Positions 16,098 through 57,780 of a stretch of 64,000 nucleotides of DNA are shown here, in pieces. A program made the translations under genes and the position numbers. The notes beneath the pieces were generated by a model, which searched no databases, was not told the DNA's origin, and was given only the letters and a program-made list of their open reading frames with translations. Source of the stretch: Owenia fusiformis (Eukaryota); NCBI GenBank assembly GCA_903813345.2, contig CAIIXF020000001.1:3472001-3536000 (forward strand). The letters run 5' to 3'. The stretch's first letter is position 1; each line of letters begins with the position of its first letter.

Positions 16098-16887
16098 TAT
16101 GTCTATGTCAATAATCTGCAAAAGGCTAATAAGCCCATATAAAGCAGATATATAATTTAACAGTGATAGAATTTGAATAGAATATAATTTAAAACCTTAA
16201 CATTTAAAAATAGATCTATGGTTTACAACTCATTTTACCTGGGGAGACTGTCAGGCTACCGCGTTGACATCACCCCTCTTTACCAGTAGTGCAGGCTTGT
16301 TGCTGTGCACTGGGGACCCTTTACATTAAAACATAGATCTATATTAAAAACACACCTATTTAATTGCAGTTATTGACATAGGCATAGTATGATGATTTAA
16401 AACTACTTAGACTGTCACAGTCTAAGATGTCACCAGGTAGAGTGTTCCATTTAGCTATTGTCCTAGGGAAATAGCTAAATTTGTATGCATCCGTTCTAGT
16501 TGATGGTTGTATGAACTTAGAAGGATGATACAACCTAGTGTTGGTATTGATCTGTTGGCAGAAGTATGGAGGCACGTCGATGGCTGCTAGGTTCTGCTTT
16601 CCTTTGTAGAAAAGGAAAACTCTAGCAGCCTCTCGACGCTCCTTCAGTGGCTCCCACTGTAGGTCTTGAAGAGCTTTGGTGACGCAGCCTGGTTCCCTTG
16701 AGTGACATTTGGTTACAAACCTGGCTGCTCTTCTCTGAACCTGTTCCAACATATCAATATCTTTTTGTCGGTAAGGATCCCATGCCGAGCTGGCATACTC
16801 TAAATTAGGCCGGACTAGTGACTTATACGCCTGAGCCTTCACTTTTTCAGGGCATTGATGGAGGTTGCGCCTGAGAAATCCAAGCAC
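16098..16887 (-). mobile_element. 5'-truncated LINE (CR1/L2-group): ORF2 C-terminus plus 3' UTR
   Basis: ORF 16360-16887 LGFLRRNL...[19 protein letters not shown]...[12 protein letters not shown]...[15 protein letters not shown] is the typical post-RT region. The 3' UTR is shared with 48525-48905. Confidence 0.9.
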
Positions 16888-17059
16888 CTTATTATATCAA
16901 AACGAAATCTTAATTAACATCATTAATTCTGAATTTGGCAAAGAATACTTACTCAGTTATGTATTCTCATATTTTTAGTATAATTATGGACTATTTTTTA
17001 ATAATTGCACTGTTGTGGATAAAAAATATTTTCAAAAATTGACAATCTGACAAGCTGAG

Positions 17060-20231: not shown

Positions 20232-23200
20232 ATGGCAGCAACCCTGAAGTTCCCAGTGAGCAGGGTGGCACTGTGGGACCATTGTAGCAAGGGAGCAGCC
20301 TCATACAGTCATCTTGCATATTATAGGTAGGTGCATGGGTTGAAAAATAAACTACATTGAAACATGTATATCCGAACACCTTTCTAATTGGAACACCTTC
20401 CAATCTGAACACTTTTTTCATGTCTCATTTTTTCCTCCCATGGACTTTCATGTTTAAAAATCTTGAAATCTGAGCACCTCTTAATTCGAACAATAAACAG
20501 TCATATTTGAAAAATTAATCGTGATAAATCTTGCTATCCTATTTACATGCTATTATTGTGCATTCAGTCAAATATAAACTGGAAACAATCATGATTAACC
20601 AATATGTTGTGGTAGGAGCTCGGACACTTTTAGCTAGTCCCATTGGTATTCTGTTTAGACAGGTTTTACTGTTATGAGGGTAGCTAATTGTCTTGTCATT
20701 ACTGCATGTTGTAATACATAACATGGACTTTAGTTACAGATGGATTTGTTAATCTCTGTAATACCATGAGCTATTCGCTAACATGGACAAATATTGACAT
20801 TTCCAATGTAGAAATCAATTTCATATTGTTCAATAGGATGTTCTGCCACTGAAACTATTGTTTAGTTTTTTTTATTTTATTTTGTTGATTTTCAGAAACC
20901 CAACAATCCTATTGGAAGAAAAGGCACTAAGATTAGCGCATAGATATGCCCAAGATTCTGGTGATGACAGCTTCAGGTGTCTCTTGATAGGGAACATTAA
21001 CATCACATCAGGTACATATTTTCTAATGTCTAGTTTGTTTGTTTGTTATATTTGAGAGTAATCTTCATTGATGCATCAATGATACTGTAATGTCCCCAAA
21101 ATTGGACCAAGTGGATGCTGCAACCACTTAAGATTATAAGGCTTATAGGCTTGTATTTTGTACTCACTTGAAAACCCATTTGCACCCACTTTCCAATTTG
21201 CACCCACTTTGAAATCCAGACAAATTGTGAACTTGGCCACAGATGTTAAAATGAGAGATTGCAATTTTGTGTACTACACCTTCTATTTCTAAGTTTTGCT
21301 ATTTGAAAAATGGCCGTCATTTTTACATTTTTTCCAAAAGTAGTGTTCGATGGGATTTCCTACGCTTTGGCATTGCTGTTGTCTAGTTAGTCATAAGTTC
21401 GCCTACTTTGCCTTACAGATGGTGAGGGAGTGATTGTCACTCTAGACCAGTTCAAGCCATTAGAAGGTCCAGTCAGCTTCGAGGCTCAATTAATGCCAGG
21501 GGAGATCAGGTCTCCATGTGAGGTGAGTGGTCTGGTCAATGAGTCGTTTCAATATTGGTAAATTACAACAGTGAAGTAGTTTATTATCCTGTTAACAAAA
21601 TAACTGTTGCGATTCCTATTGTTCAGCAGTGTTTGAGTTTCTAAAAAAAGGTTAAATGTTTCTAATGTTAACAAGATTTTGTTATTCATATACATATACA
21701 TATACAGGTGTTTGTTATTATTTCCAGTTAAACAACAACCAAACCCATGGAAAGATAGAAAAACCTCTCGATTCATATGAAATGGCATTAAAGGTATGTT
21801 CTTTGTTAAAAGCTTTGTTAAAATCATCTCATCCTAAAATGAAATACCTGTGCAATTTTTTCGTTCAAAATAAATACTGTACTAGGTGTCCTCTGAAATT
21901 TTTTTTTGATGTTGACAATACAAATGTTCAGATGACCCAATTTTTGATCATTTAGCCCCAGCACCATTGCATAAAAAATATATGCAAGCCGTTTTGCCAT
22001 AAATATATGTCTCTGTACAAGTACCATTGTTTCTAAATCCAGAGTGAACATGTTATGCTAAGAAGTTTAGGGATGTGCCACCGTTATTATCAAAATCTGT
22101 GATTACCGGTATATTAAATTATGACATGATAACATCTTTTTGTTTCGTTGTATAGTAAAGTATTTATTTTATAAACTGAAGGCCTTGTTTTGTAAAACAT
22201 AAATGAAATGATGTGGCCATTTTGCATGTACTGGAATTGTTATAGAAAACAATAATGTCAAAAAGTTCACTTTACTCAAATTAATTATAACTCTCAGTTT
22301 ACATTCAAATATGAGAGATACTGTACAAAGTTCATTGATTTGATTTTAGCTTCTTACACAGCAATGCAGCTCAACCAGACTTGACATGAATGATGCTGTG
22401 TGTCTACAAGCCTGTATCTCATATACCCAGGAGAAGCACACAATAAACCTGGACATTGACTTGGACCTAATGACATTCAGCACACAGTTACAAGCTGTTC
22501 CAGTCTCTCCTGTGCCCATTATACAAACTGCATTGTCCAAAAATCTTGCTAGTGGACAGAGCATGAGTGCTCTACAAGGTCAACCAAAGGCTGGGTATGT
22601 TCTGTGTATGCTTTCTCTACTAGCTATACATAAATCTATTTACTTTGACATATCTTAACTGACTGATATCTTATGTTCCACACTCTAATATTACAGTAAA
22701 ACCTGTTTATTCGAACACCTCGATCTCTAATCCAAACACCTCTCAATGACTGTGAACACTTTTCCTCTGTGTTCCAATTTTCCAGTGGTGTTCGGATAAG
22801 ACAGGATTAACTGTATATATTAAGTCAGGTAGTAACCATTGTGTTTTGTATTAAGTATGATACGGTAAGTACCCATTCGTGTAATGTATGCTCAATACGT
22901 AAACTTATATCTAATGAAATTATTGACTTGCAGATATTTGACACTGGACCAAACCAGGAAGCTGCTACTAGTTTTAGAATCAGACCCTAAAGTCTCCACT
23001 CTTCCCCTGGTTGGAGTGTAAGTAGTGTTGAATATATAACAGTTCATTTATTCATTATATGAGTTTTATAGTAAGACACATTATTTCATATTAAAATATT
23101 TACAGTTCAGCAATATTGCGATCCGGTAAACAGTAATTGTTCAGATTTCGTATGGAAGTCATTTGTAATTTGAAATAAATTAATTTTTGTCATTGTTTGA

Positions 23201-32774: not shown

Positions 32775-33923
32775 ATGCTTAAACAGTATTTTAACAAGCT
32801 AAATCTTCTATATTGTATCGTCATTTTAATGATAATAATGAATGGAGTTTTATACGGCTTGTATTTAACAGGAAATAATTATAACATTTTGCCAACTGAA
32901 ATAACTTATAATTCATCTAAACAAAACGCTCTTCCAAATTTATTACTTATCATAAATATATCATCGAAGAAGCCTAATCAGTTTGACACAACTGAAATAG
33001 ATGAAAGTATTACAAGAGCATCAGGCAGCATCGTAAGAACAGAGGCTACTTCAAAGGAAATTATGGATATAACAAAAGAGCCAGTGTTAATACAAAATGG
33101 GGGTGACAATTTATCATTAACGCAAACTATAACAGATCTGCCTTTTGAAAATGTATCGTTTGATGTAACAACAACAGGTGGAGCTACACGTATCACAACT
33201 ACTCAAATTCCAAGATCATATCCTGATGTGTTCAAACCAAAGATGACTGACATTGAGAAAAAAATAGTTGTTGAAATGTTAGATACATTTGACAAAATTA
33301 CCAAAACTTACAATTTGACATATTTTATATATGGAGGAACTATGATAGGATCCTGGAGGCATCATGGAATAATACCATGGGACGATGATATAGACCTCAT
33401 GATGAATGCTTCACAGAAGGCACAAGTCTACACAGCATTGTCATCTCAAAATCCACTGTATCAGGTGTGGAGACCACAGGGGAAGATTTTCACACAGGAC
33501 TTCCAGTGGAAATTCTACAGCGAATCATCTAGGACAATACCCCACTATCCTTGGTGGAAATGGCCATTTTTAGACATTTTCTTCTTTAACGAAAATGCAA
33601 CTCATTTATGGGACCATCATTCCAAGAACCATGGTTTTCTGCTCAAGAAGTCTGAAGTGTTTCCATTATCACTTAGACCATTTGAATCACTGTGGCTTGC
33701 TTCTCCCAGACAAATATCAACAGCCTTAGACAAATGGTACAATATGTCGATATGTGCCTCTCCAACATGGGATCATCAAACTGAACGTTATACCACAAGC
33801 CACACAAGCGTTTCTTGTGAAGAACTTTATCCATATTTCCCCTTTGTTACTAGGACAGTAGATTGTATTGAGACATTGAAGCTTGGAGGCCATGTTCTAC
33901 ATTCTAAATATGTACGCTGCTGA
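32775..33923 (+). CDS. LicD/fukutin/FKRP-family phosphotransferase, type II membrane protein, intronless CDS
   Basis: N-terminal transmembrane segment, Thr-rich stem, GGTMIGSWRHHGIIPWDDDIDL motif, WPFLDIFFF, VFPL..RPFE. Confidence 0.9.
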   Translation: MLKQYFNKLNLLYCIVILMIIMNGVLYGLYLTGNNYNILPTEITYNSSKQNALPNLLLIINISSKKPNQFDTTEIDESITRASGSIVRTEATSKEIMDITKEPVLIQNGGDNLSLTQTITDLPFENVSFDVTTTGGATRITTTQIPRSYPDVFKPKMTDIEKKIVVEMLDTFDKITKTYNLTYFIYGGTMIGSWRHHGIIPWDDDIDLMMNASQKAQVYTALSSQNPLYQVWRPQGKIFTQDFQWKFYSESSRTIPHYPWWKWPFLDIFFFNENATHLWDHHSKNHGFLLKKSEVFPLSLRPFESLWLASPRQISTALDKWYNMSICASPTWDHQTERYTTSHTSVSCEELYPYFPFVTRTVDCIETLKLGGHVLHSKYVRC

Positions 33924-42681: not shown

Positions 42682-45600
42682 CTACATATAGCCTGCATTA
42701 AGCAACATTTGTGAGTATGACTGATAGTGAGCTGCCAACTCAGGAGGTATAGCTTGTTGGCCTTGTTGCACTTGGGGAGCAGGTACCTGCACTTGTACCC
42801 CTTGGGGTGGGCCTGTCTGGGGGGAGGGGGAATTAATGGGCATGTGGGTAGGTTGAAGGGTGCTGACTGTAGGTATATACTGCTGGGGGAGGGAGGTGCT
42901 TGGGTGATGAGGGACAAGCATCGTTGGAGGCCCTATCACTTGAGAGGTCTCCATAGTAACCCCAATATCTCCACTCTCCAACACATCACGATGAGGCATT
43001 TCCATGTATGCAGACTCCACCTTCAGTTGATTTAAACTATCATGCTCAACCACTTGTGATTCAGCTTTATGGTCCTCATTATCATTAGCAATTCTAGGTT
43101 TATTTACAAGATACTCTGTTATAACTTTAGGTACAGAGGATTCCTCATCAGGTTTTAATACCTGACTAACATGATTATATGCTCGCTTGCTCTTAATCTC
43201 ATTTTCATTATAATTCACTGGGTTTGAAGAATAGTGTAAGAAAGGTTGCCGCTGACGCTTCCTTGGTTGCGACACAGTAGCTAGCTCACTATGATGTTTC
43301 CTCATATGTTCTGTTAGTTTATCCTTGCGACTGCAGGCAAATTCACATTGCTCACATTTGATTGGTTTATCAGGGAGATGGGTTTTCTCATGTCGAATCA
43401 GATTGCTTTTATCAACAAAGCCCATTCCACATGTTGTGCAGACAAACGAGCGAATTCCAAGATGAAATCTTGTGTGACGATCAAGGAGTGAACGCTTTGG
43501 TGTAGAGTAAGTGCATTCTGGGAAGGCACAGCGGAAAACGTCACCTGGAGAATATTACACCAAGAATATAAATTATGAAAAACTAATCATATTCAGATAC
43601 TGTAAATTGCTTTAATTTGGCAATTTTTGATTTGGCTGATTGGGCAAATTTTGAAATTTTGACTATATTTAATTTGTCAGATTGACTATCAGTACTCATA
43701 TTACTCACTTCAAAGCTCGCCATCAATAACGCAATTTTATCTCTCCTGGTATCAGATTGTTTTATCTAAACCAGAGGGGACTTTGGAAATACATATAGTT
43801 TAAAATTGACATTTTATCCATTTTTCAATCAAGATTTTCACCAAAATTTATCGTGCAAGGTTATACATTGAAAGCGCACTGGACTAAAGTTGGGGGGTAC
43901 AAAAAATTCGAAGCAAACGGGTGACATATACACAAATTTCGTACCAAATGCGTGACATGTATGGAATTTGCGTGAAAAGTCTGGTGTACATTTTTTGAAG
44001 TTCTTCTACAGAAATATTTTTGCTTGAGAATGTTATCAGGTAAAATACGTATTTGCGTTACATATTCTGTCACTAAAAATAATGCGTGACAAATACACAA
44101 ATGGCGGGAAAGTTGGACTCCCTGCACCACCTGGTTGCTCACAATATAACTAGTTCAATCCTAAGTCAGATTTAAATTTATGAGAACTCTGTAGATGATT
44201 TTGAAAAAAATAAATTGGTCAATTTGAAATTTTTTGACCCTGAGAAGGTCATTGAAGGTGAAATCTAAAGTCAGATTTGAACTTCTGAGAACTTGACTTT
44301 GAAAAAAAAATTGGTAAATTTGAAGCAAGTTGAAAAAGACCTTTTTGACCTTGACAAGGTCATTGAAGGTAAATGTTTTTTGACCTTGAGAATGTCACTG
44401 AAGGTCAAATCAATTTGAAAACTTGTAGATGATTTTGAAAAAAATTGGTCAATTTGAAACAAGTTGAAAAAAGACCTTTTTGACCTTTTTATGACCTTGA
44501 GAAGGTCACTGAAGGTCAAATCTTAAATCTTAAGTGAGATTTAAACTTCTGATAATTTGTAGATGATTTTGATAAAAATTTGGTAAATTTAAAGAAAGTT
44601 CAAAAAATACCCTTTTGACATTTTTTTTACCTTTTTTTAACCTTGAAAAGGTCATTGAAGGTCAAATCTTAAATGTAAAGTCAGATTTGAACTTCTGAAA
44701 ACTCTGTAGATGATTTGTAAGAAAATTGATGTCAGTCTAAACAGTATTTCGTAAGTTATTGGAAGTTTTAAGAATTTGTTACAGACACCAACCGCCATCC
44801 GCTGATCGTCAACTACCAATCGCCGCCACAAAAAATGGAGACCATAACAAATAAGTCACTACTTCTTGGTGGTGACATAAAAACTAATGGAGACTTAATT
44901 TGGCAGTTTCTATCAATCTGCCAAATTAAAACGGCCGTCAAATTAAAGCAATTTACAGTAATCTGAAGAATTCCTGAATTAGTAGTGCATCATTTAAATG
45001 ATTTCTCTGGAGAAGGTAACAAGATTTCAGAAAAACTTTATTTCAATTTTACCCAGCATACAGAATAGGGCAAATAATTTGTTATCGTTGTGTTTAATAG
45101 CTGACCTGTATGTATGCGCTTATGTCTCATCATAGTTGTCTGATGCTTGGTCGAAAATCCACAGGAATCACACAGCCACAAGCTCACCTGAATAATATAT
45201 GAAATATGTTCTAATCATAAACATTTTATATGCCCACAGATATATTCAATATATTACTTCATCTTATTTAAATCTCAGCGTCAAGTGCAACCACTCTCCA
45301 GACTGTGGCCTGAACTAAATAAGGGAGAATAACATTGGAATGAATTACAATTATTATGAAATAAAAACTCAATTTAACATTGTTCACACATCCAATTTAG
45401 CCCTAGTCTCTACAGAAAGACGCTCAGTCTAAATTCCAGATGTTAATGATAATGTTCCAATTACCTGGCTGTGCTTCTGACAGTGGGCCTGTAGCTCTTG
45501 TCTGGTATAAAACCTATCCCCGCACTGGTCACATGCATGACTCTTGTCCCCTGGAATAAAGAAAATAAACATTACATTGACATCTAAGCCCATTTAAAGC

Positions 45601-48101
45601 AGATACATAATTGAACACATTACATTAATTATCACATTTTCGATATTTCAAATAAATAACAGAATTAGGAGACTGTTTTATAAGTATATAGAGTTAAATA
45701 TTGCATATTAATACAATATAGAGGGTGGCCCAACAGTAGGTTTGCAATTTACAAAGAGATTGTAGAATAACTGCAAACCTACTATGGGCCACCCAGTATT
45801 CAATAATTGTAAAACTTCTAGCAATCTGTTTGACTCAAGTGATGTAAATACTTAATATATAGAGATTTTTCACACAGTGTGATACAGAATCTGTACACCC
45901 CGACACTACTTCAACTGTTACCTTGTGAAATACATGACAATATTTTCTGTGCTCTACTCTAATCATTGAATACCATATCATCTTGCTAAAGCGGCAGCAA
46001 CTTGCATATTACTTGATGACTGCTTTGAATATTTCACTCTCTATTCTTTGTTGCTACTTTAAATGAGCGTATTCCGGTACAGGTACATGCATTTTACAAT
46101 TATATACAATAACAATTACATACAATAACAATATATACAATACAATATATACCAACCTGAATGCCTTTTCATATGTGTAGTTAAGTTACTGGGTGTCCAA
46201 AAAGAAGCTTGACATAGAGGACACACACACGGTTTCACCCCTGTATGTCTGACCCTGTGATTCAATAGCATGCTGATTTTGTCAGTCGTGTAATCGCAGT
46301 CTTCAATATCACATATAAATGGTGGACCAGTGAAATGGAGCTTGTAGTGTTCATTTAGATCAAGTCGATTACTAAAAGTGTTTGCACAAACTTTACAAGT
46401 ACATGTTATACTTCTATTTTTATTTTTAGAGTCTTCGCTATGACGTGTCTGAACATGCCTTTTCATGTGATCTTTACGACGGGTTTTATATTCACATTCT
46501 GTGCATGATACCAATTGACCAGCCTCTCGAGAACGATGCGCTTTACGATTACTTTTTTCACGCTTCTTTAGTTTTTTAGCCTTTTTTTCTTCAGCAGCTT
46601 CCACTGTGTCATCATTATCTTCATTTACATATTCCTCATCAATTTCAGTTGCAGAGTCATCTGATATAATCGCTCTGGCTTTTTTAACAATTCTGGTTTT
46701 CACTTGCCGTTTTCTTTTTAACTTATAAGCCATCTTCGCAGGCTTTGCTTTTCCTATTTTACTTTCTGTGGCAATTTTCTTTGGTCTGCCTTTCCTAGTA
46801 CGTTTAGTGGAGGATGCTTGTACGTCTTCATTAATATCATAGTCCAAGTCATTTGCATCATCACCATTATTATCATCCTCCACTTCAGTGAACTCAGATT
46901 TAATATCATTTGGGCTATCATCTTTCTCATCATTTTGAGTATTATCTTTCTTGTCATAATATGTGGTGTCTTTATCAATCTTGAGCACTAATTTTTCAAT
47001 TTGTTTTTTGTTCTGCTTTTTTCTTCCCCTTTTCTTCTTCATAGGAGGTTCCTTAACAATCTCTTTACCATCAGACATTGAGGAATCACCTTGATTTTCA
47101 TCTTTGATCTTGATCTTTACCATTCCTTGTTTTTCTTTGGAAACTTGAACTTCTTTCATGCATTGATGATCAGTTTTTTCCTCGATGTCAGGGGCCAAAC
47201 TTTCAATATCATTGTCTAGGTATCCTGCATTAGAAAAGTTCCTTTTGATGAATTCTGTGAGACCTTGTGATAGTTCATTAAAAATGTAAAGTTTGGCCAA
47301 TCTCTGTAATTCAAAGATGTTATCCTCTGTAACAATGACTTGGCCAGAATAGATGTAATCCAAAAGCGCCTCAAATGCAACATGGTCTTCGCAGTCAATA
47401 CTGATCTGTTCAATAGCAATCATTGATGGTGTTTGTTTTAAAATAGCATCAAAGTAAGAGCTGCAAGCTGCTAAAACACAACTATGGGCGGGATACTTTC
47501 TATTCTGTAATACCAACACAACATCGCAAAATCGACTCAATTCCTTCTGTGTTTTGAATTTCTCAAGGAGGGACTTTCCATGGTTTTCATGTTGAACTAT
47601 TGTTGGAATTACAATCCGAGGATTGGCCTTTAATTTTGTCTCCACATCAGAGTTAGGTGGTACATTTTGAGGTGTCACATTGTTGATATGTGAGTGCATA
47701 TCTTCCCTAACACTTGCCTCTTCAGGTTGAACATTACTACTTTGAAAACTTTCTTCTGGGTTGACTTCTGAGGTTTGTTGTCCTTTCTTAGCAAAATCTT
47801 GGGCTTTTGAAGTTTCACCAGTTTTCTGAACTGTTGGTAGAGTTTCACTTGGTTTGTGATATCCATGTAAACTATCTTGCAAAATAGACCCATCTTTGAC
47901 TGCAAATGACGCTGATGTGTTATAAATGTGATCTGTCTGTTCAGATACATGCTGATAGGATGATGGGTTTGATAAATCAAGAGTTTCAGATAATATCCCC
48001 TGCTCAGCACCTTCACTTTTTAGAGGCTGTACAATGTGAACTTCCTGATGGGGAGTATGCTCTATGGCCCGCTCCTTGTCGTCTATGTCTTCACCGTCCA
48101 T
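42682..48101 (-). CDS. BTB/POZ + AT-hook-like + 9x C2H2 zinc-finger protein, paralog A
   Basis: Exons 46157-48101, 45465-45550, 45106-45187, 42682-43544. BTB FCDVVLV...YPAHSCVLAACSSYF...LLDYIYSG; RKGRPKK; nine C2H2 fingers; Q/P-rich tail. Confidence 0.92.
43598..44960. mobile_element. TA-flanked MITE hosting nested MITE and HINE fragments in the last intron of paralog A
   Basis: TACTGTAAATTGCTTTAATTT (43598-43618) inverts AAATTAAAGCAATTTACAGTA (44940-44960); nested pieces at ~43900-44125 and ~44150-44880. Confidence 0.7.
45718..45800. repeat. ~80-bp hairpin mini-MITE, Tc1-like ends
   Basis: GGGTGGCCCAACAGTAGGTTTGCA...TGCAAACCTACTATGGGCCACCC. Confidence 0.65.
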
Positions 48102-48524
48102 TTCGGAATTCAGTCAAATTTATCATAAAATGAACTTAGACTATCTGCAAGTATGGCTATTTGATGTAAACATGATAATTCCACCTATTCTATCCAAATT
48201 TTAGAAGTGATTTGTTCGATTAAAGTTGTTTTATGGACCAGCCCCCATCACAAATATCTACTGCGCATCGCAATTACGCATATGTCGCTAACAATCGTAA
48301 CAAATAATAGATTGTCCACAATACGGGCTTCTGACAGTTCTACAATTCAAACACAAGCGTTCGTATTGCGTTTATAGCACGGGAAAACACGTATACTATT
48401 TTCGTATAGTACACAGGAAATACATCACAAAAAGCCTATCTAATTAAAAAAATCAGATAGGTGTGGTTTTATATTGTCGTCTGTATGCGATTTATAGTAC
48501 TTCCACATCTAAACTAGCTCTCAA

Positions 48525-49203: not shown

Positions 49204-49753
49204 TTAGGAACGGATCTGGGAACCAACAATGGGGGGGGGGAAATTTCAGGTCAGAGAAAAAATGTCCCCTTAAACCAAAAAACCAAAATTTGGCCTAAAA
49301 TTAAAAAATAAGACCTTGAATGTAATGTAATGTAGTAATGACCAAAAGGCCCACTTTTTGGGGCATTAAGGCCTTTTTGGCCCAACATTTTTTGGGCCCA
49401 ATTTTTATCTGGGCCCACTTAAGCCCCCCCCCCCCAGATCCGCCAGTGCTATTTGTGTTATGGGAGCTGGTTAGGGCTTTGGAGATCTTCTTCCACAGTT
49501 GTTTTTACAGGGCACATTCTCCCTTCTTCACGCCTAACCATCGACAACGTACAGAGACAAAATGTACAGGTGTACACTTTATAGTTGTTTGAAGCAAGAT
49601 TTGTGATGTAGGTTTTAAAAGTTTTTTTTCTAAGGAATATGATGAAATATTTCGTGTTAAATGTCATGTGCACGCTCTTGGCAAGACTTTTAACTTTTTA
49701 ATTACGTTTACAGATTCTCAATCAGAGCACGAGTTTAAGTAATTCCACCCCGG

Positions 49754-50102: not shown

Positions 50103-50364
50103 GGTGCTGGTAACCAGTTGCACCCCGTGTCTTATTGTATTTGGCAATGTCTAAGCAGCAGGCGCAAGTAATATGCGCACAAATAGTTTGGATCGAAAAT
50201 TCTGAAATATTTACAAAATGGTAAGGTAAAGTTTCGATTATCTTTGATTCTATTTGGTATCTTGAATTGTATAGTACCTTTGTAGCATCTAGAATTTGTC
50301 GAATTAATTTTGTTGTCATTTTAGGTTTGAAATATGGGCTTATGACTGTGAACAAGATCGCTGA

Positions 50365-52074
50365 AATATCGGATTTTTTTAGCGGGACAAAATGATAAAT
50401 CCCTTGCAATTTCGAAAGTGAAAACGTCAATCAGAGTAAAATCTCATGAGTATACTAGGCAACTGACTGTGGTCTATAGCCATATTTGTAGTTTTTCAAT
50501 ATTAGTTCTTACTTGGGTTAGTAACGGTGTATGAAATGTTAGTCCACAGTATCAGTTATGGTCATAGGCTAAGGGTTAAGTAATAGTAAGCTGTATATAG
50601 AAGAGACAGGTGAACAACTAGGATTTAGGCCACTTGTTAACATGGCGATTTTAACATTATTTGTGTATAATTTTCAAAAAACAATGCAGAGTTGATCCAA
50701 AATTGATAGTTCTCAATTCTTACCTATGAATCAACCACATTCAAGTGATATAGAGTGAATAAAGCCGTCTTGAGGTGAGATATTCTGAAAACCTACAATT
50801 GCCTGGCAAGTTACCAGGATTTCCGTGTTGAATCATGAATGGAAGTTTGAAACAAGGAATTTGATTGGTTCCTGCTAACCGCCGCCAGTGACACCTATCT
50901 GGTTCTCTAAAATGTAATTCATTTTCTAGAAATAACAATCAATTAAAGTGTACAAAACTATAAAAGGTTTACTTAATAATTATTTATCAAAACATCTGAT
51001 TCATATAATATCTTTTTAAACCCAATTTAAATGGTGAAATTAACATTTTTCTTGGAATTTTAAACTTCTAATTACAACCAATCAAATCAATCGTTACAAG
51101 ATTCAATCTTTCCATGTGTCCGGAAGTTTCAACTTGCCGGGCAATTGCAGGTTCGTGCAGTTGGTGTTTTTTTATGCTGTCTTATCGAAGAGTTAGGATA
51201 TAGATTTGAAATATTCAACAATCTACGTTTCGAAAACACTTTGGAGAAGATTCTTGGGAGATTTGGTGGTACGACTCGATACCAGTAAGGAGAACTCGTA
51301 CCAAGACGGCAAGTTTTTGAAAAAAATTTCAATCCTAATTGTTTACCTGTCTCTTCTATATACAGCTTACTATTACTTAACCCTTAGCCTATGGTTATGG
51401 TCATATTTCAATATTTCATTTCATCCATGGGAAGAGAGGGGGGGTGACTAATTACTCCATGTGATTTCAACATGCAATCCGGTTAGGTAAATGTGTACGT
51501 TTGGAAATTGTTATGCAATCGTCATTGAAGTCACCTGTTATTTTCAGGAACATGATAACTACTAGCGGATCTAGATGGGGGCAAGGGCGGATCTGGGAAC
51601 CAACATGAGGGGGCCAAATTTCAGGCCAGAGAAAAAAAATATCGGATTTTTTTAGCGGGACAAAATGATAAATCCCTTGCAATTTCGAAAGTGAAAACGT
51701 CAATCAGAGTAAAATCTCATGAGTATACTAGGCAACTGACTGTGGTCTATAGCCATATTTGTAGTTTTTCAATATTAGTTCTTACTTGGGTTAGTAACAG
51801 TGTATGAAATGTTAGTCCACAGTATCAGGTATGGTCATATTTCAATATTTCATTTCATCCATGGGAAGAGAGGGGGGGGGTGACTAATTACTCCATTTGA
51901 TTTCAACATGCAATCCGGTTAAGGTAAATGTGTACGTTTGGAAATTGTTATGCAATCGTCATTGAAGTCACCTGTTATTTTCAGGAACATGATAACTACT
52001 AGCGGATCTAGATGGGGGCAAGGGTGGATCTGGGAACCAACATGAGGGGGCCAAATTTCAGGCCAGAGAAAAAA
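50365..52074. repeat. ~435-bp tandem duplication; first copy interrupted by hAT-like copy 2
   Basis: 50365-50562 plus 51402-51638 matches 51639-52074; empty insertion site at ~51828-51835. Confidence 0.85.
50563..51393. mobile_element. hAT-like MITE, copy 2
   Basis: TIR CATAGGCTAAGGGTTAAGTAATAG...; 8-bp TSD GTTATGGT at 50555-50562 and 51394-51401; interior is the inverse of 18048-19176. Confidence 0.9.
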
Positions 52075-52299
52075 CTTCCGCATTTGTGGGGAAAAAAAAT
52101 TGAGGCCCATTTCCTTCAAAATTTGAACTGAAATTAGAAAATAAGGCCTTACAAGGCCCAGTAATGATCAAAGAAAGGCCCACTTCTAGGGGCCTTTTTT
52201 GGCTCAATTTTTTTGGGCCCAATTTTTTAATTCTGGGCCAATCCAAGGGCCCCGCAGACCCGCCAGTGGGGGGTGTGTATCTCGTTCTTATCTAGTCAA

Positions 52300-52926
52300 G
52301 GAATAAATAATGATAGGCCATTCAATATGGTGAAATTCAGCACGAGTTGGACAGAATGTTGTACAAAGCATGAACTGAAGGTGAGTGCATTTGTAACGAC
52401 CCTTGGGCATGCTCGTCAGGGAGCTGTAGTGTACCGAGCCAGATACTAGACTCGAAAGAGAATGTGCTAAATTCAACGTCTTACGGGAATCGAACCCAGG
52501 ACCTTTCACTCTCAGAGTCAGACGCTCTACCCCTGAGCCATAAAGGCTAGCCACTACAGCTGAGATTGTAGTAGCGACTTGCTATTGAAGTCATTACACC
52601 ATCCCCCCTAGAAGACGACGTCCCGTCGTAACTCATTCACAAGGGCAATCCCACTTCTGACACCAATGTAACGACCCTTGGGTACGCTCGTCAGGGAACT
52701 GTAGTGTACCGAGCCAGATACTAGACTCTCAAGAGAATGTGCTAAATTCAATGCCTTACGGGAATCGAACCCAGGACCTTCTGCTCTCAGAGTCAGATGC
52801 TCTACCCCTGAGCCATAAAGGCTAGCCACTACAGCTGAGACTGTAGTAGCGACTTGACATTTACTGACATTCTGTCCAACAAGTGTAGACTTTCACCATA
52901 TTGAATGGCCTATCATTATTTATTCC
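52300..52926. mobile_element. Inverted-repeat DNA element hosting the TRIM
   Basis: GGAATAAATAATGATAGGCCATTCAATATGGTGAAA...GTTGGACAGAATGT (52300-52359) inverts ~52868-52926. Confidence 0.7.
52392..52856 (-). mobile_element. TRIM (miniature LTR retrotransposon) with tRNA-derived Pol III cassette in each LTR
   Basis: 5' LTR 52667-~52856 (outer end clipped), 3' LTR 52392-52598 (TGTAAT...GTTACA). PBS TGGTGTCAGAAGTGGGATT at 52647-52665, 1 nt after the LTR. PPT AGGGGGGATGG at 52599-52609. Internal region 68 bp. tRNA-like A/B-box cassettes at 52478-52547 and 52753-52822. Confidence 0.85.
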
Positions 52927-53896
52927 GATTCAAACATAAAAAAGAAAACCTTGTTCAGAGAATTGGGGCTTTAGGTCAATGAAATAACCAAACTTGCTGT
53001 TATTTTCGCCATTCCCAGGTGTGACGTCATAATAACACAATACGTGTACATAGATTCCTGGAAGCAGATTGAATAGAGCGCGACCGTGCCTGTATGGAGA
53101 AATAATGAATGTTCATTATTGGCTATGTTGCATTCTGATTGGTTTAGAAATTCAAATAGAGCACGGTCATGTTTGAATTCCAATCACATTCTACGTTTCT
53201 GATCTTTAACGCATACAATACAACCACACATTAGTAATTTAATGTATTTCAAAAGTTGAAAAATAAAGGCGCTAGCTTTGCACATATTTCTTACTTTAAT
53301 CAATTCTAAACACCAGTCTCAACATTCTCTCAAAGCCAAAAAGGTAGCGGCTGTCTCAAATTGCAGAGCTAGAGGTAAACACTTCAATCTTTAAATCAGC
53401 CATTATTTCAAAATGTCCAGCTTTAACTTCAGGAATTGATTTTGAGAACACTACGAGCATAACAGAATGACGAATGAGGTTACATCAGTGTGATCTGGTG
53501 TCTTCGGTAGCCGAGATACAGTAACATCCGGTTTCTTCAATATGATTTATTATGTACCAAAGTGCAACAAACATACATTAGAAAGGCCATAGCTAGTTAT
53601 AAATCATTTTATCCATCACAATTATGTATCAATATAAAGTAAAAAACTCATTTTTCAAAAGTGAGATATCACAAAATTTATGTGTCCTCAATAAAAGCTG
53701 CTTGTCAAATCATTGCTCTTATGCTGTAGCATAGCCATCTATTTCCAGGATTCAATTGATTCGATTTGTTTGCCACTACTAGTATTTTGATATGTTGGCT
53801 AAACTTATGTCTCACATGGTATAATTGCATTCTTTGGTTCTCCTTTCTAGATGCAGGACAAAGCACTGTTTGAAGCTAATTGAGAACAACCTCAAA

Positions 53897-56800
53897 ATGG
53901 ATAAACCAGAAACAATTTCCGGTGTAAGATCTGTCCCAGAGGCGGTCGGTCTGAAACCATGTAAGGATGCTTCACGAGAGGAATTTGAGGCCCAAGATCA
54001 ATTACTCGTTGTGGAAAGAACTCCAACATCTGCTGACACTAATACTGATTCCAATGTTGGCAACATTGTTGTCAATGAAGCCATAGAAAGTGCTGAAAAC
54101 ACAGAAAAATGTGTTGAAATGCCCAACAGTAAATGTATCAATGAAACGGAAGAAAATCTTGCCTCGGTTTCAGAACAATCGAAAAATACTGGCATGTCAT
54201 CACCAGTCAATGAATGTCCAACTTTAGTCGAAAACATAAGTCACCCTGCTGCATTGTTAGATAAATTGAAACTGCAGAAGGAAGCGGGACGATTTTGCGA
54301 TATTGAAATTATTGTTGGTGACAATAAATATCCTGTTCATAAATGTGTTTTCGCAGCGTCTAGTGCATATTTCGATGTACATTTTACAACAAGTTCTGTG
54401 CAACAGTTAAATATCGACTGTGAGGATACTCAGGTGATCGAGGCCCTTATTAATTATGTGTATACTGGGCAAATAATTGTGAATATAAACAATGCTATTG
54501 AGCTTCAACGTCTCGCAAATCTTTACATGCTTGTTGATCTGAGTAAAGGACTGGAGCAGTACATACAACAAACATTTACAGATCAGTTGAGAAAAGATTT
54601 AAACATTACTCCAGATATTTTGCCTGTGGCATCAAAACTCAATAAATCATTAAAGGAGCAGAATTCAAATGTAAAATTGAAGAAAGTGAAATCAGATCAA
54701 GAGCAAACTGGAAAACACAATATCAATACCAATGACTCGGAAGAACATGAACCTGTCATTAAACGGAAACGAGGACGTCCATTTAAGAAAGATAAGGTTA
54801 TAAAGGATGAGGAATCTGTGATACAAAAAGATCTTGAGAATGAAAAATTGGTGGTGAATCCATTGTCAGATGATGAAGACATAATCCAAGAGAAGACTTC
54901 AGTAACAACAAGGTCAAAGAGAACTGCCACCATGATATTGACTCGAAGAAAAGGCAAACCAATGAAACATCCAACATTTGATTTACTTAAATGTGAACAT
55001 TGTGATTTTAAATCACGAAGAACAGACCTTTTGCAACGTCATACACTTATAAAGCACAACATCGGTGAAGGTAACAGTAATTTTACCGCAAAGGTGAAAT
55101 TTACATATAAATGCCAAGAGTGCGAATTTAAGGCAGACTCTAACAAAGATCTTGTAGAACATTATAAAACTCACTTTGATGGACCACCTTACAAATGTGA
55201 TCAGTCTGGGTGCAAGTACAAGAATAACAATGTGAAGTATCTCCTTATGCACAAAGTGCGTCATGGATCAGTGAAGACGCATATATGTTCCATATGTTCT
55301 GCTGGGTTCTGGTCCATGTATGAGTTAAAGACACACATGATTAAACACACTGGTAAGTTATATTTTTGTCATCATAAAAAACTCAAAATGTTGAACAAAC
55401 GTTGCAAAAATAATGTAAAATTGTCAACGATTTTTAAAAGTCTCTATCCCAGCCTCAAGGGGTGTATACACTGGCAGGTGAAATGCTTGAAACGGGGGGC
55501 GAAAAAGCTGAAATTATTGAAATGAAAGATAATGTGATACCAGCTTAGGCGAATTGATTGAAATGCTTGAAACAGCGAAAGCAGCGAAACAGGCGAAAGC
55601 AGCGAAACAGTAATTTTATTTTTGGAGACGTATTGATTGAAATGATTGAAACGGTTGAAAAGCCCCGGCAAAATGCTTGAAACGAAAAACGTGCATGTTC
55701 CTTTTTCTTTTCAATCGTTTCGCCCGTTTCTTCATGAATTGGTCGTATGATTGAAATGCTTGAAACGGCGAAACAGGCGCAAACAGCGAAACTTTAAATT
55801 AATTTCAAAGGCGAATTGATTGAAACGATTGAAATGCTCAAAATGATGTAAGCATTGAAACATAGGAAATAATGCAGACATTGAAACCATTGAATTGATT
55901 GAAACGATTGAACCAATTGAAACGATTGAAAGCTATTTACAGTGTATACAGGGCTTCAGTCTCAGTTTATGAAAGACAGAAATCAAATGTTTTTTTATGG
56001 ATAATGAACGTTCAAAATTCAATCTGAAACAATAACCTGATAATTGCATTGTTTTGTATTAGGAAACAAGGATTTTGCATGTGACCAGTGTGAAAGTAAA
56101 TTCTACACTAGAAATGAACTTAGTCAACACAAGTTTGTCCACAGCAAAGTAAACTCATTCCTGTGTGATGAATGCGGCTTCTCAACTAAACACAAAGCAA
56201 CAATTATAAGACATAGAAAAATCCACACAGGTAAGTACACGATTGTAAATATATGAATATATGAATTATAGAGGCCGGCATTTGAAAAGCACATTCTTGT
56301 TTTTTGTTTGTTATATCAACCACTTTGTGACCACACCAGCGTTGATGTTGACATCTGTTTAAGATATTGTTACAGTCTTGCAATTACTTACCTAATGGTG
56401 TGTATTATTATGTACATGTTGTAAATTAAAAACATTTGTAAGTATATTATATATAGCTTAGGTTATTTATCATACAATCACAAGTAAACGGATCTTATTG
56501 TTGGAGATTTATTTGACATTCATCAATTTAAATTCATATACGTGTAGTGTATCATCTAAAATATATATTTTTGAATCATTTCTAATTCTATTTTAATATC
56601 TTTTGCAGGTGATTTGTTCCATTGTCAATTTCCTTCTTGTAAGTACTCAACGCCACGTCGTACATTGATGGATGCCCACACAAGGTGTCATCTGAACATT
56701 AGATCACACGTCTGTACAACTTGTGGCCAAGCATTTGTAGAGAAGAGTAATCTGAAACGCCATGAGAGAACTCATTTACCATACAAACCATTCCCATGTA

Positions 56801-57780
56801 CCATGTGTGACTTTGCTTGTTTCCGTAAGGACAAATTGAAGGATCACCTCAAGAAGCATCATGGTGTTGAAACGGAAAGTCCACCAAAGGCCAACAATAA
56901 CAACAAAACATTGCCGAGATTCAATCGTTTTGCTGTAAAAAAGTTCAGCTTGTCTCAGAATCAGGGGAAAACTGTTGAAGTAAGTGTCGACAGTGAAGAG
57001 AAAGTTACAAACCAAGTGAGCACACTTGATAGTCAAGAAAATGTAACTCAACAATCAGCTGTAACTGGGCAGACAATAACATCACTTGAGCCCCAACAAA
57101 CAATAGACCAGCCTTCTGCCGTTGACATACCCTCTAATGTGGTCATACCTGTCTCTAACAGCCTTGTGGCCACACAGGGGAACAACATGGAACAAGTGCT
57201 CCAGGGTGAACAATCCATGGGTGAAGATCAACTAATCATTGCCCAGAGTTACTCAGATGAGCACATCTATATAAGTCAGGGTGAAAATATTAATATTGCA
57301 GCCCAAGGAGGTCAAGATTCTCAGAGTCTTCCTATTAAAGGAGACACTGCTACTAATCAGCAAGGCCAACTTGATCAACCAAATCAGATCCTGATAGCTA
57401 CAACACCTGGTTCAACCTCCAACCAGCTACAGGAGTTGGTATCTCAGACTATTGGTACAATTGCTGACAGCCAACAGGAAGATGGTGTCATGAAATGGGA
57501 GATTGTAGCAACAGATGCAAGTCAGGGAGAGCTACAAGAAGGCCAGATTATACAACTACAGAGAGATAATAACGGGGAACAAAGTGAGGGCCACATTATA
57601 CATATACATCAGGAAGAGGGTCTTGCTCAAATTCAGCCAGATCCTAACAACCCACAGCATTTCATACAGGTCCCACTAATTCGCAATGCTGATGGGGTAC
57701 CTGTCACAGATCCTGCCATATATCAACAGCAATATGCCTCATATACACATATGTTACTAAACCCCAACATAATGATGTAA
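53897..57780 (+). CDS. BTB/POZ + AT-hook + 9x C2H2 zinc-finger protein, paralog B
   Basis: Exons 53897-55352, 56063-56230, 56609-57780. BTB FCDIEII...YPVHKCVFAASSAYF...LINYVYTG; KRGRPFK; fingers colinear with paralog A. Start codon inferred (acceptor AG at 53849-53850). Confidence 0.92.
55469..55944. mobile_element. CACT-ended element with many short subterminal repeats (EnSpm/CACTA-like)
   Basis: TA-CACTG...CAGTG-TA; dense TTGAAAC, GATTGAAA and GCGAAA repeats; sits in an intron of paralog B. Confidence 0.55.

Follow-up and report, generated by a model that had tools for sequence, protein, structure and literature searches.

The window analysed here is a 64-kb stretch of the Owenia fusiformis genome. 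Two genes encoding BTB/POZ proteins with C2H2 zinc fingers stand head to head in it, at positions 42685-48113 (minus strand) and 53825-57777 (plus strand). Their products are 33% identical over the BTB exon and 67% identical over 73 amino acids of the zinc-finger exon, the closest database relatives are at most 39% identical, and the pair is one of old paralogues. The 5.7-kb spacer between these two genes is rich in repeats and is the location of the short element described below. Elsewhere in the window, a single-exon gene (32778-33920, plus strand) encodes a nucleotidyltransferase of the LicD/FKTN/FKRP family (PF04991) with an N-terminal membrane anchor. The best relatives of this LicD-like protein are at most 43% identical, and the named ones are molluscan and nemertean. 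An exon of the STIL gene (Pfam STIL_N) is found at 22350-22655 and is 99% identical to an Owenia fusiformis protein. An open reading frame (ORF) of 178 residues (16363-16896, minus strand) resembles, by eye, the C-terminal region of a non-LTR retrotransposon protein and matches no Pfam family at E-values up to 0.01.

The element within the spacer lies on the minus strand and is 466 bp long, with two long terminal repeats (LTRs) of 191 and 207 bp that enclose an interior of 68 bp. The repeat finder reports direct repeats of 195 nt at 52392-52586 and 52667-52861, 93% identical and with a start-to-start spacing of 275. When the region is compared with the whole window by BLASTN, the match spans 190 nt (93.7% identity, E 2e-80), and no third copy of the repeat turns up in the 64 kb. 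The 3' LTR (52392-52598, minus strand, 207 bp) starts with TGTAATGAC and ends with GTCGTTACA, as delimited by the sequence, the repeat finder, the alignment of the two LTRs and the ends of family reads; its termini make up an imperfect inverted repeat of 9 nt. The 5' LTR (52667-52857, minus strand, 191 bp), delimited by the LTR alignment, the repeat finder and BLASTN, has the same 3' end, GTCGTTACA. The initial annotation had this copy lacking its first ~17 bp. The alignment of the two LTRs reveals instead an internal deletion: the first base (52857) is retained, and it is the next 16 nt, present in the 3' LTR, that are missing. Over 190 aligned positions the LTRs differ at 12 (10 transitions and two transversions; Kimura distance 0.067), and six of these 12 differences fall inside the 71-nt tRNA-like module that each LTR carries, which indicates that the copy has decayed freely since its insertion. 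Two stop-to-stop frames, of 97 and 94 amino acids, extend over the LTRs and match no Pfam family at E-values up to 1, and neither a reverse transcriptase nor an integrase domain occurs among the 33 ORFs of the window that were scanned.

The interior (52599-52666, minus strand, 68 nt) is composed of a primer-binding site (PBS), a short hairpin-forming spacer and a polypurine tract (PPT), with a predicted folding energy of -17.0 kcal/mol. The PBS, TGGTGTCAGAAGTGGGATT, is located at 52647-52665 (minus strand), one base (T) after the 5' LTR. The PPT, AGGGGGGATGG, is located at 52599-52609 (minus strand) and abuts the TG of the 3' LTR; both were recognised in the sequence. The PBS 19-mer occurs a single time in the window with up to three mismatches allowed, leaving no second PBS copy in the 64 kb, and none of 100 shuffled windows contains a match to it. 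A full-text search with 16 letters of the site led to a probe for mouse tRNA-Leu(CAA), and the first 19 nt of this probe, as printed in PMC7997516, are identical to the PBS at all 19 positions. [quoted passage not shown]

The tRNA-like module of the 5' LTR (52752-52822, minus strand) matches the Rfam tRNA model with 34.4 bits (gathering threshold 29) and is the sole Rfam match above threshold in the whole 64-kb window. It is also reported by ARAGORN, as a tRNA-??? of unassigned type with a four-base anticodon, and the module of the element is the only tRNA call in the 64 kb. The module of the 3' LTR (52477-52547, minus strand) is more decayed and does not reach the Rfam threshold, its best match being to tRNA-Sec (19 bits, E 0.96); hence one of the two copies passes the threshold. 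Both LTRs carry the sequence TGGCTCAGGGG, one mismatch away from the A-box consensus, and the sequence GGTTCGATTCC, an exact match to the B-box consensus. The anticodon region folds as a long hairpin and not as a 7-nt loop, that is, as a non-canonical arm. In the layout of the repeat, the tRNA-like head is preceded by ~51 nt, and an unrelated tail of ~85 nt follows the module. The module may resemble tRNA-Lys. It is tRNA-derived and is not a working tRNA gene. The presence of a tRNA-derived module in each LTR, as first proposed, is therefore borne out by the Rfam match in the 5' LTR and by the A and B boxes in both. To call each module a Pol III gene, however, went too far, given the non-canonical anticodon arm and the one copy of two that falls below the Rfam threshold.

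Public reads inform on both the insertion site and the family. They were placed on 52080-52680, which covers a single LTR together with the interior and 3' flank, at a likeness of at least 85%, and came from a DNA raw-read run (X24), a DNA contig set (X1) and two RNA raw-read runs (X21 and X22); all the family evidence derives from this one placement. The element sits in a host foldback (MITE-like) repeat. One arm of this repeat is found at 52300-52359 (inverted repeat of 60 nt, 92% complementary; read depth) and the other at 52867-52926 (inverted repeat, BLASTN and reads), with a loop of ~39 nt, positioned by empty-site reads at 52360-52395. The foldback repeat is high-copy, with a DNA depth of ~430. 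In 84 RNA reads of X21, 72 RNA reads of X22 and 31 contigs of X1, the sequence runs from 52395 straight into the other foldback arm, and 81 DNA reads of X24 display the matching joint on the opposite strand (52359/52360 to 52395). These uninterrupted foldback copies give the empty site, from which it follows that a 4-bp duplication, AATG on the element strand, flanks the insert. Its 5' copy lies at 52858-52861 (minus strand; sequence and inferred empty site) and its 3' copy at 52388-52391 (minus strand; sequence and empty site). The target-site duplication (TSD), which the initial annotation had declared unreadable, can thus be read through the uninterrupted foldback copies. The reading concerns a single locus, and requires the 16-nt deletion in the 5' LTR together with a 2-nt difference in the host repeat, this copy having TA next to the site where the read consensus has TGTA (plus strand).

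The footprint of the foldback repeat in the window comprises 52300-52395 and 52864-52942. Other foldback copies have a left arm that is at least 16 nt longer: the loose ends found at 52300 have the sequence ...TTTTTATGTTTGAATC, which mirrors 52927-52942 and indicates that the left arm of the window copy was cut short. The foldback repeat is equally abundant in the RNA runs and in the DNA run.

The element belongs to a multi-copy family. In the DNA run X24, the LTR bins have depths of 69-427 reads and the three interior bins 123-142, vs. 0.2-0.3 in two apparently single-copy bins. The LTR-to-interior depth ratio is ~2-3 to 1 once the diverged tRNA-like half is set aside. With 1661 M letters read and an assembly that spans 505.8 Mb according to PMC9977687, the expected cover is ~3.3-fold, which yields a rough copy number of ~40 interiors and, according to the LTR segment considered, ~20-130 LTR equivalents; this estimate has a single-copy level uncalibrated from the reads and counts solo LTRs and full copies together. 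The boundaries of the 3' LTR are visible across the family as loose ends, at 52590 behind and at 52392 before. At the TG end, 111 reads of X24 and 23 contigs of X1 continue with a G followed by TCATTACA and then with mutually unlike sequence, and at the CA end, 36 contigs of X1 become unlike right before 52392, so that the flanks at both LTR ends are heterogeneous among copies. Three contig records of other copies, each 11-12 letters off the window, span the LTR start, the PPT, the interior and the PBS. Furthermore, several joints in X1 lead from the PBS back to 52392-52432, and represent the 5' LTR-PBS junction of other copies. The initial annotation had considered that it would be refuted by other copies being plain tRNA-SINEs with variable tails; the other copies prove to have fixed TG...CA ends and the same PBS-PPT interior.

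The read depth drops over the 3' half of the tRNA-like module, where 159 reads go on with a different yet tRNA-like T arm (loose end at 52476), indicating that a commoner subfamily has a diverged module. In this commoner subfamily, the T arm remains B-box-like at the same loose end and the 3' acceptor strand is different, and ~60% of the reads are changed at 52544, in the 5' acceptor strand. The change at 52544 and the altered 3' acceptor strand could be a compensating pair. The lower depth of the tRNA-like half, compared with the rest of the LTR, also indicates that no abundant SINE shares this head at a likeness of at least 85%. Outside these samples, metagenome contigs gave no match to a pattern of the LTR end plus PBS and none to a pattern of the LTR body with N at two variable places. 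Of the indexed sequencing runs listed as containing the sequence, none is an RNA run, and the best contain at most 0.41 of the sampled words.

The locus might also be read as two tRNA-derived SINE copies lying side by side, with a spacer due to chance and no retrotransposon at all. SINE2 elements and the Owenia element both have a tRNA-like head, equipped with A and B boxes, and an unrelated body behind it, and the tail of ~85 nt conforms to the SINE2 layout. SINE2 elements, however, are mobilised by LINEs, end in LINE-like or A-rich tails and possess no PBS, PPT or LTRs. The Owenia element lacks such tail features, with neither an A-rich nor a simple-repeat tail; its repeat has ~51 nt ahead of the head, and the TG and CA ends are fixed in the family. 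The supposed chance spacer opens, one base after the repeat, with a perfect 19-nt complement of the tRNA-Leu(CAA) 3' end including the CCA, and closes with a purine tract that abuts the next repeat. It is also multi-copy in its own right and is bridged by contigs of other copies, and the tRNA-like half is covered at lower depth than the rest of the LTR. Two adjacent SINEs are hence a highly improbable reading of the locus.

Still less probable is a non-autonomous DNA transposon of the KolobokP type. Such transposons are present in O. fusiformis and, in PMC9587614, are described as LTDR-INT-LTDR units with solo LTDRs and 3-5 bp duplications; their long terminal direct repeats (LTDRs) each have inverted ends, to which the 9-nt imperfect inverted repeat of the Owenia repeat can be likened. 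However, these LTDRs measure ~450 or ~660 bp, with TIRs of 11-18 bp and ends of the form 5'-RR...YY-3', whereas the repeat here is 207 bp long and has TG...CA ends. A DNA transposon would, moreover, have no use for a PBS and a PPT at the very edges of the repeats. Two further kinds of LTR cargo were looked for with Rfam. No 5S rRNA match, as in Cassandra or Ajax, was found at E-values up to 1 in 52000-53300, nor above threshold in the window, and no hammerhead ribozyme, as in the LTRs of retrozymes, was found at E-values up to 1 in 52000-53300.

The order LTR-PBS-PPT-LTR, the TG...CA ends and the multi-copy family agree with the miniature LTR retrotransposon of the initial annotation. The element is very probably an old, damaged, non-coding miniature LTR retrotransposon, both LTRs of which contain a tRNA-derived module. 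The insertion is old and broken, and its effect on the locus is probably none.

A class of such elements, which the initial annotation had mentioned under the name Helenus, is in print (Kojima 2024, Biology 13:119; PMC10886601). Helenus elements are TRIMs with a tRNA-derived sequence in their LTRs, a PBS and a PPT, and a reported length of 311-1263 bp. In animals they have 4-bp TSDs and a PBS common to Gypsy families, autonomous members of which are proposed as their partners, and the boxes TRGCY...YGG (A) and GGTTC (B) are conserved (PMC10886601). The Owenia element displays these features: it is a short, non-coding TRIM with two LTRs, a PBS, a PPT and a 4-bp TSD, it is multi-copy, and its tRNA-like module passes the Rfam threshold in one of two LTRs and has the boxes in both. 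For box A in the Helenus form, TGGCT is present in both LTRs and the YGG part reads GGG, one mismatch. As in Helenus elements such as oyster Helenus-2C_CGi or zebrafish LTR-11_DR, each of the short LTRs includes a tRNA-like module that has kept its A and B boxes and is not a working tRNA. The PBS directed to a tRNA 3' end, the PPT, the 4-bp TSD and a length of 466 bp, inside the 311-1263 bp range, are shared as well, as are a multi-copy family and LTRs that outnumber interiors. Since all the defining features that were tested are present, the Owenia element belongs to the known Helenus kind, to which it is likened by features and not by sequence to named families. It differs from the published members by its host phylum, Annelida.

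Six animal phyla with Helenus are covered in PMC10886601, Annelida being absent from them, and the word "annelid" does not appear in the main text of that paper. The screen of Kojima proceeded from Repbase seeds to related genomes (PMC10886601), which means that annelids were not systematically searched in it, and no report of an annelid Helenus or TRIM was found in the literature searched. An annelid member of Helenus is a new phylum for a published kind, and a seventh animal phylum for TRIMs whose LTRs contain a small-RNA module. In annelid genomes, LTRs of this sort will be picked up by tRNA gene finders. As to primers, Helenus of hymenopterans and vertebrates uses tRNA-Leu, as does the nemertean Ajax, and the primers given for bivalve Helenus are Lys, His, Ile, Pro, Glu and Ser, Leu not being listed among them (PMC10886601).

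Two related lineages are instructive for comparison. The nemertean Ajax is likewise a lophotrochozoan TRIM with a presumed Pol III promoter in its LTRs and a tRNA-Leu PBS (PMC10886601), but its module is a 5S rRNA and its TSD is 5 bp, against a tRNA-derived module and a 4-bp TSD in the Owenia element. Cassandra is also a non-coding TRIM with a small-RNA gene module and an internal Pol III promoter in both LTRs; in contrast to the Owenia element, it is found in plants, contains a 5S module and is 565-860 bp long. Among these lineages, Pol III transcripts have been shown by experiment only for Cassandra (PMC10886601). Owenia fusiformis has a chromosome-scale genome with deep developmental RNA and chromatin data, which makes it a convenient animal in which to test Pol III transcription of such LTRs, the first outside plants.

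It is reasonable to infer that the family is transcribed by RNA polymerase III and mobilised by a Gypsy-type helper. In this scheme, an RNA would start in the 5' LTR and run into the 3' LTR, with no T4 run on the sense strand to stop the polymerase before it gets there. Proteins supplied in trans by an autonomous Gypsy-type element would then package and copy the RNA; such an element would be expected to share the tRNA-Leu primer and to make 4-bp duplications. The first DNA strand would be primed by tRNA-Leu(CAA) at the PBS, and the second by the purine tract. The A and B boxes may well constitute an internal RNA polymerase III promoter for this RNA, a role to which we give close to an even chance.

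It is also quite conceivable that RNA polymerase II, or read-through from host genes, accounts for the transcription of the same TRIM. The module would then be a passenger, left by an old insertion of a SINE or tRNA into an ancestral LTR and devoid of any promoter role; a tRNA-derived SINE inserted into an ancestral LTR is indeed regarded by Kojima as the likely source of the Helenus module (PMC10886601). The RNA data are in part as this possibility would have them. The runs X21 and X22 cover the family on both strands, and in neither do RNA starts or ends pile up, at the tRNA-like head or elsewhere; standard RNA-seq libraries are, however, ill-suited to reveal Pol III starts. Relative to DNA, the RNA depth rises at most ~2-3-fold from the upstream to the downstream side of the tRNA-like head. 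Terminator-like T runs are missing in the element and right after it: the sense strand of the 466 nt is free of runs of four T, and the first T4 comes 250 nt downstream of the element. This absence had been entertained as a sign of a read-through design and was dropped, as 581 of 5000 shuffles are likewise without T4 and it is therefore not significant. Moreover, the Pol III promoter function of Helenus is without experimental validation according to Kojima 2024 (PMC10886601). On the other hand, both LTRs keep intact A and B boxes although six of their 12 differences fall in the 71-nt module, the commoner subfamily of the reads also retains a B-box-like T arm, and the boxes are conserved across Helenus families (Kojima 2024, PMC10886601).

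The strands of the reads provide a further indication. Over the interior, first mates on the plus vs. the minus strand amount to 28.1 vs. 13.2 in X21 and 45.6 vs. 19.0 in X22, compared with 184.7 vs. 217.8 in the DNA run. Provided that these are standard stranded libraries, the lean of first mates to the plus strand corresponds to a 2.1-2.4 to 1 excess of element-sense RNA. Such a lean to the sense strand weakly supports the view that the elements themselves give rise to some transcription, and is silent on the polymerase.

A broader proposal, which we hold to be unlikely, is that the annelid family shares descent with molluscan, brachiopod and nemertean Helenus, being older than the split of the phyla or having moved between them, and that the module is also selected as a working Pol III promoter. 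The hints in this direction are the presumed resemblance of the module to tRNA-Lys, the possible compensating pair in the acceptor strands and the 2.1-2.4 to 1 sense lean. Molluscan Helenus LTRs were aligned by Kojima against tRNA-Lys (Figure 2d legend, PMC10886601).

The remainder of the spacer around the element contains further repeats. A high-copy repeat at 52101-52184 (with 52195-52228 and 49374-49417) adjoins the element and reaches a DNA depth of ~355; its first mates lean to the minus strand in both RNA runs, opposite to what is seen over the element. After this repeat comes a short tandem motif of 15-16 nt, TTTTTGGGCCCAATT, which recurs 2.8 kb away. Farther off, an inverted repeat of 63 nt, 97% complementary, joins 50563-50625 and 51331-51393. 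A near-identical pair of 203 nt (99%) is found at 50364-50566 and 51637-51839, and another pair of ~240 nt (96-100%), with a spacing of 434-437 nt, at 51396-51637 and 51830-52074. These local repeats, between 50364 and 52074, look like recent duplications or nested mobile elements.
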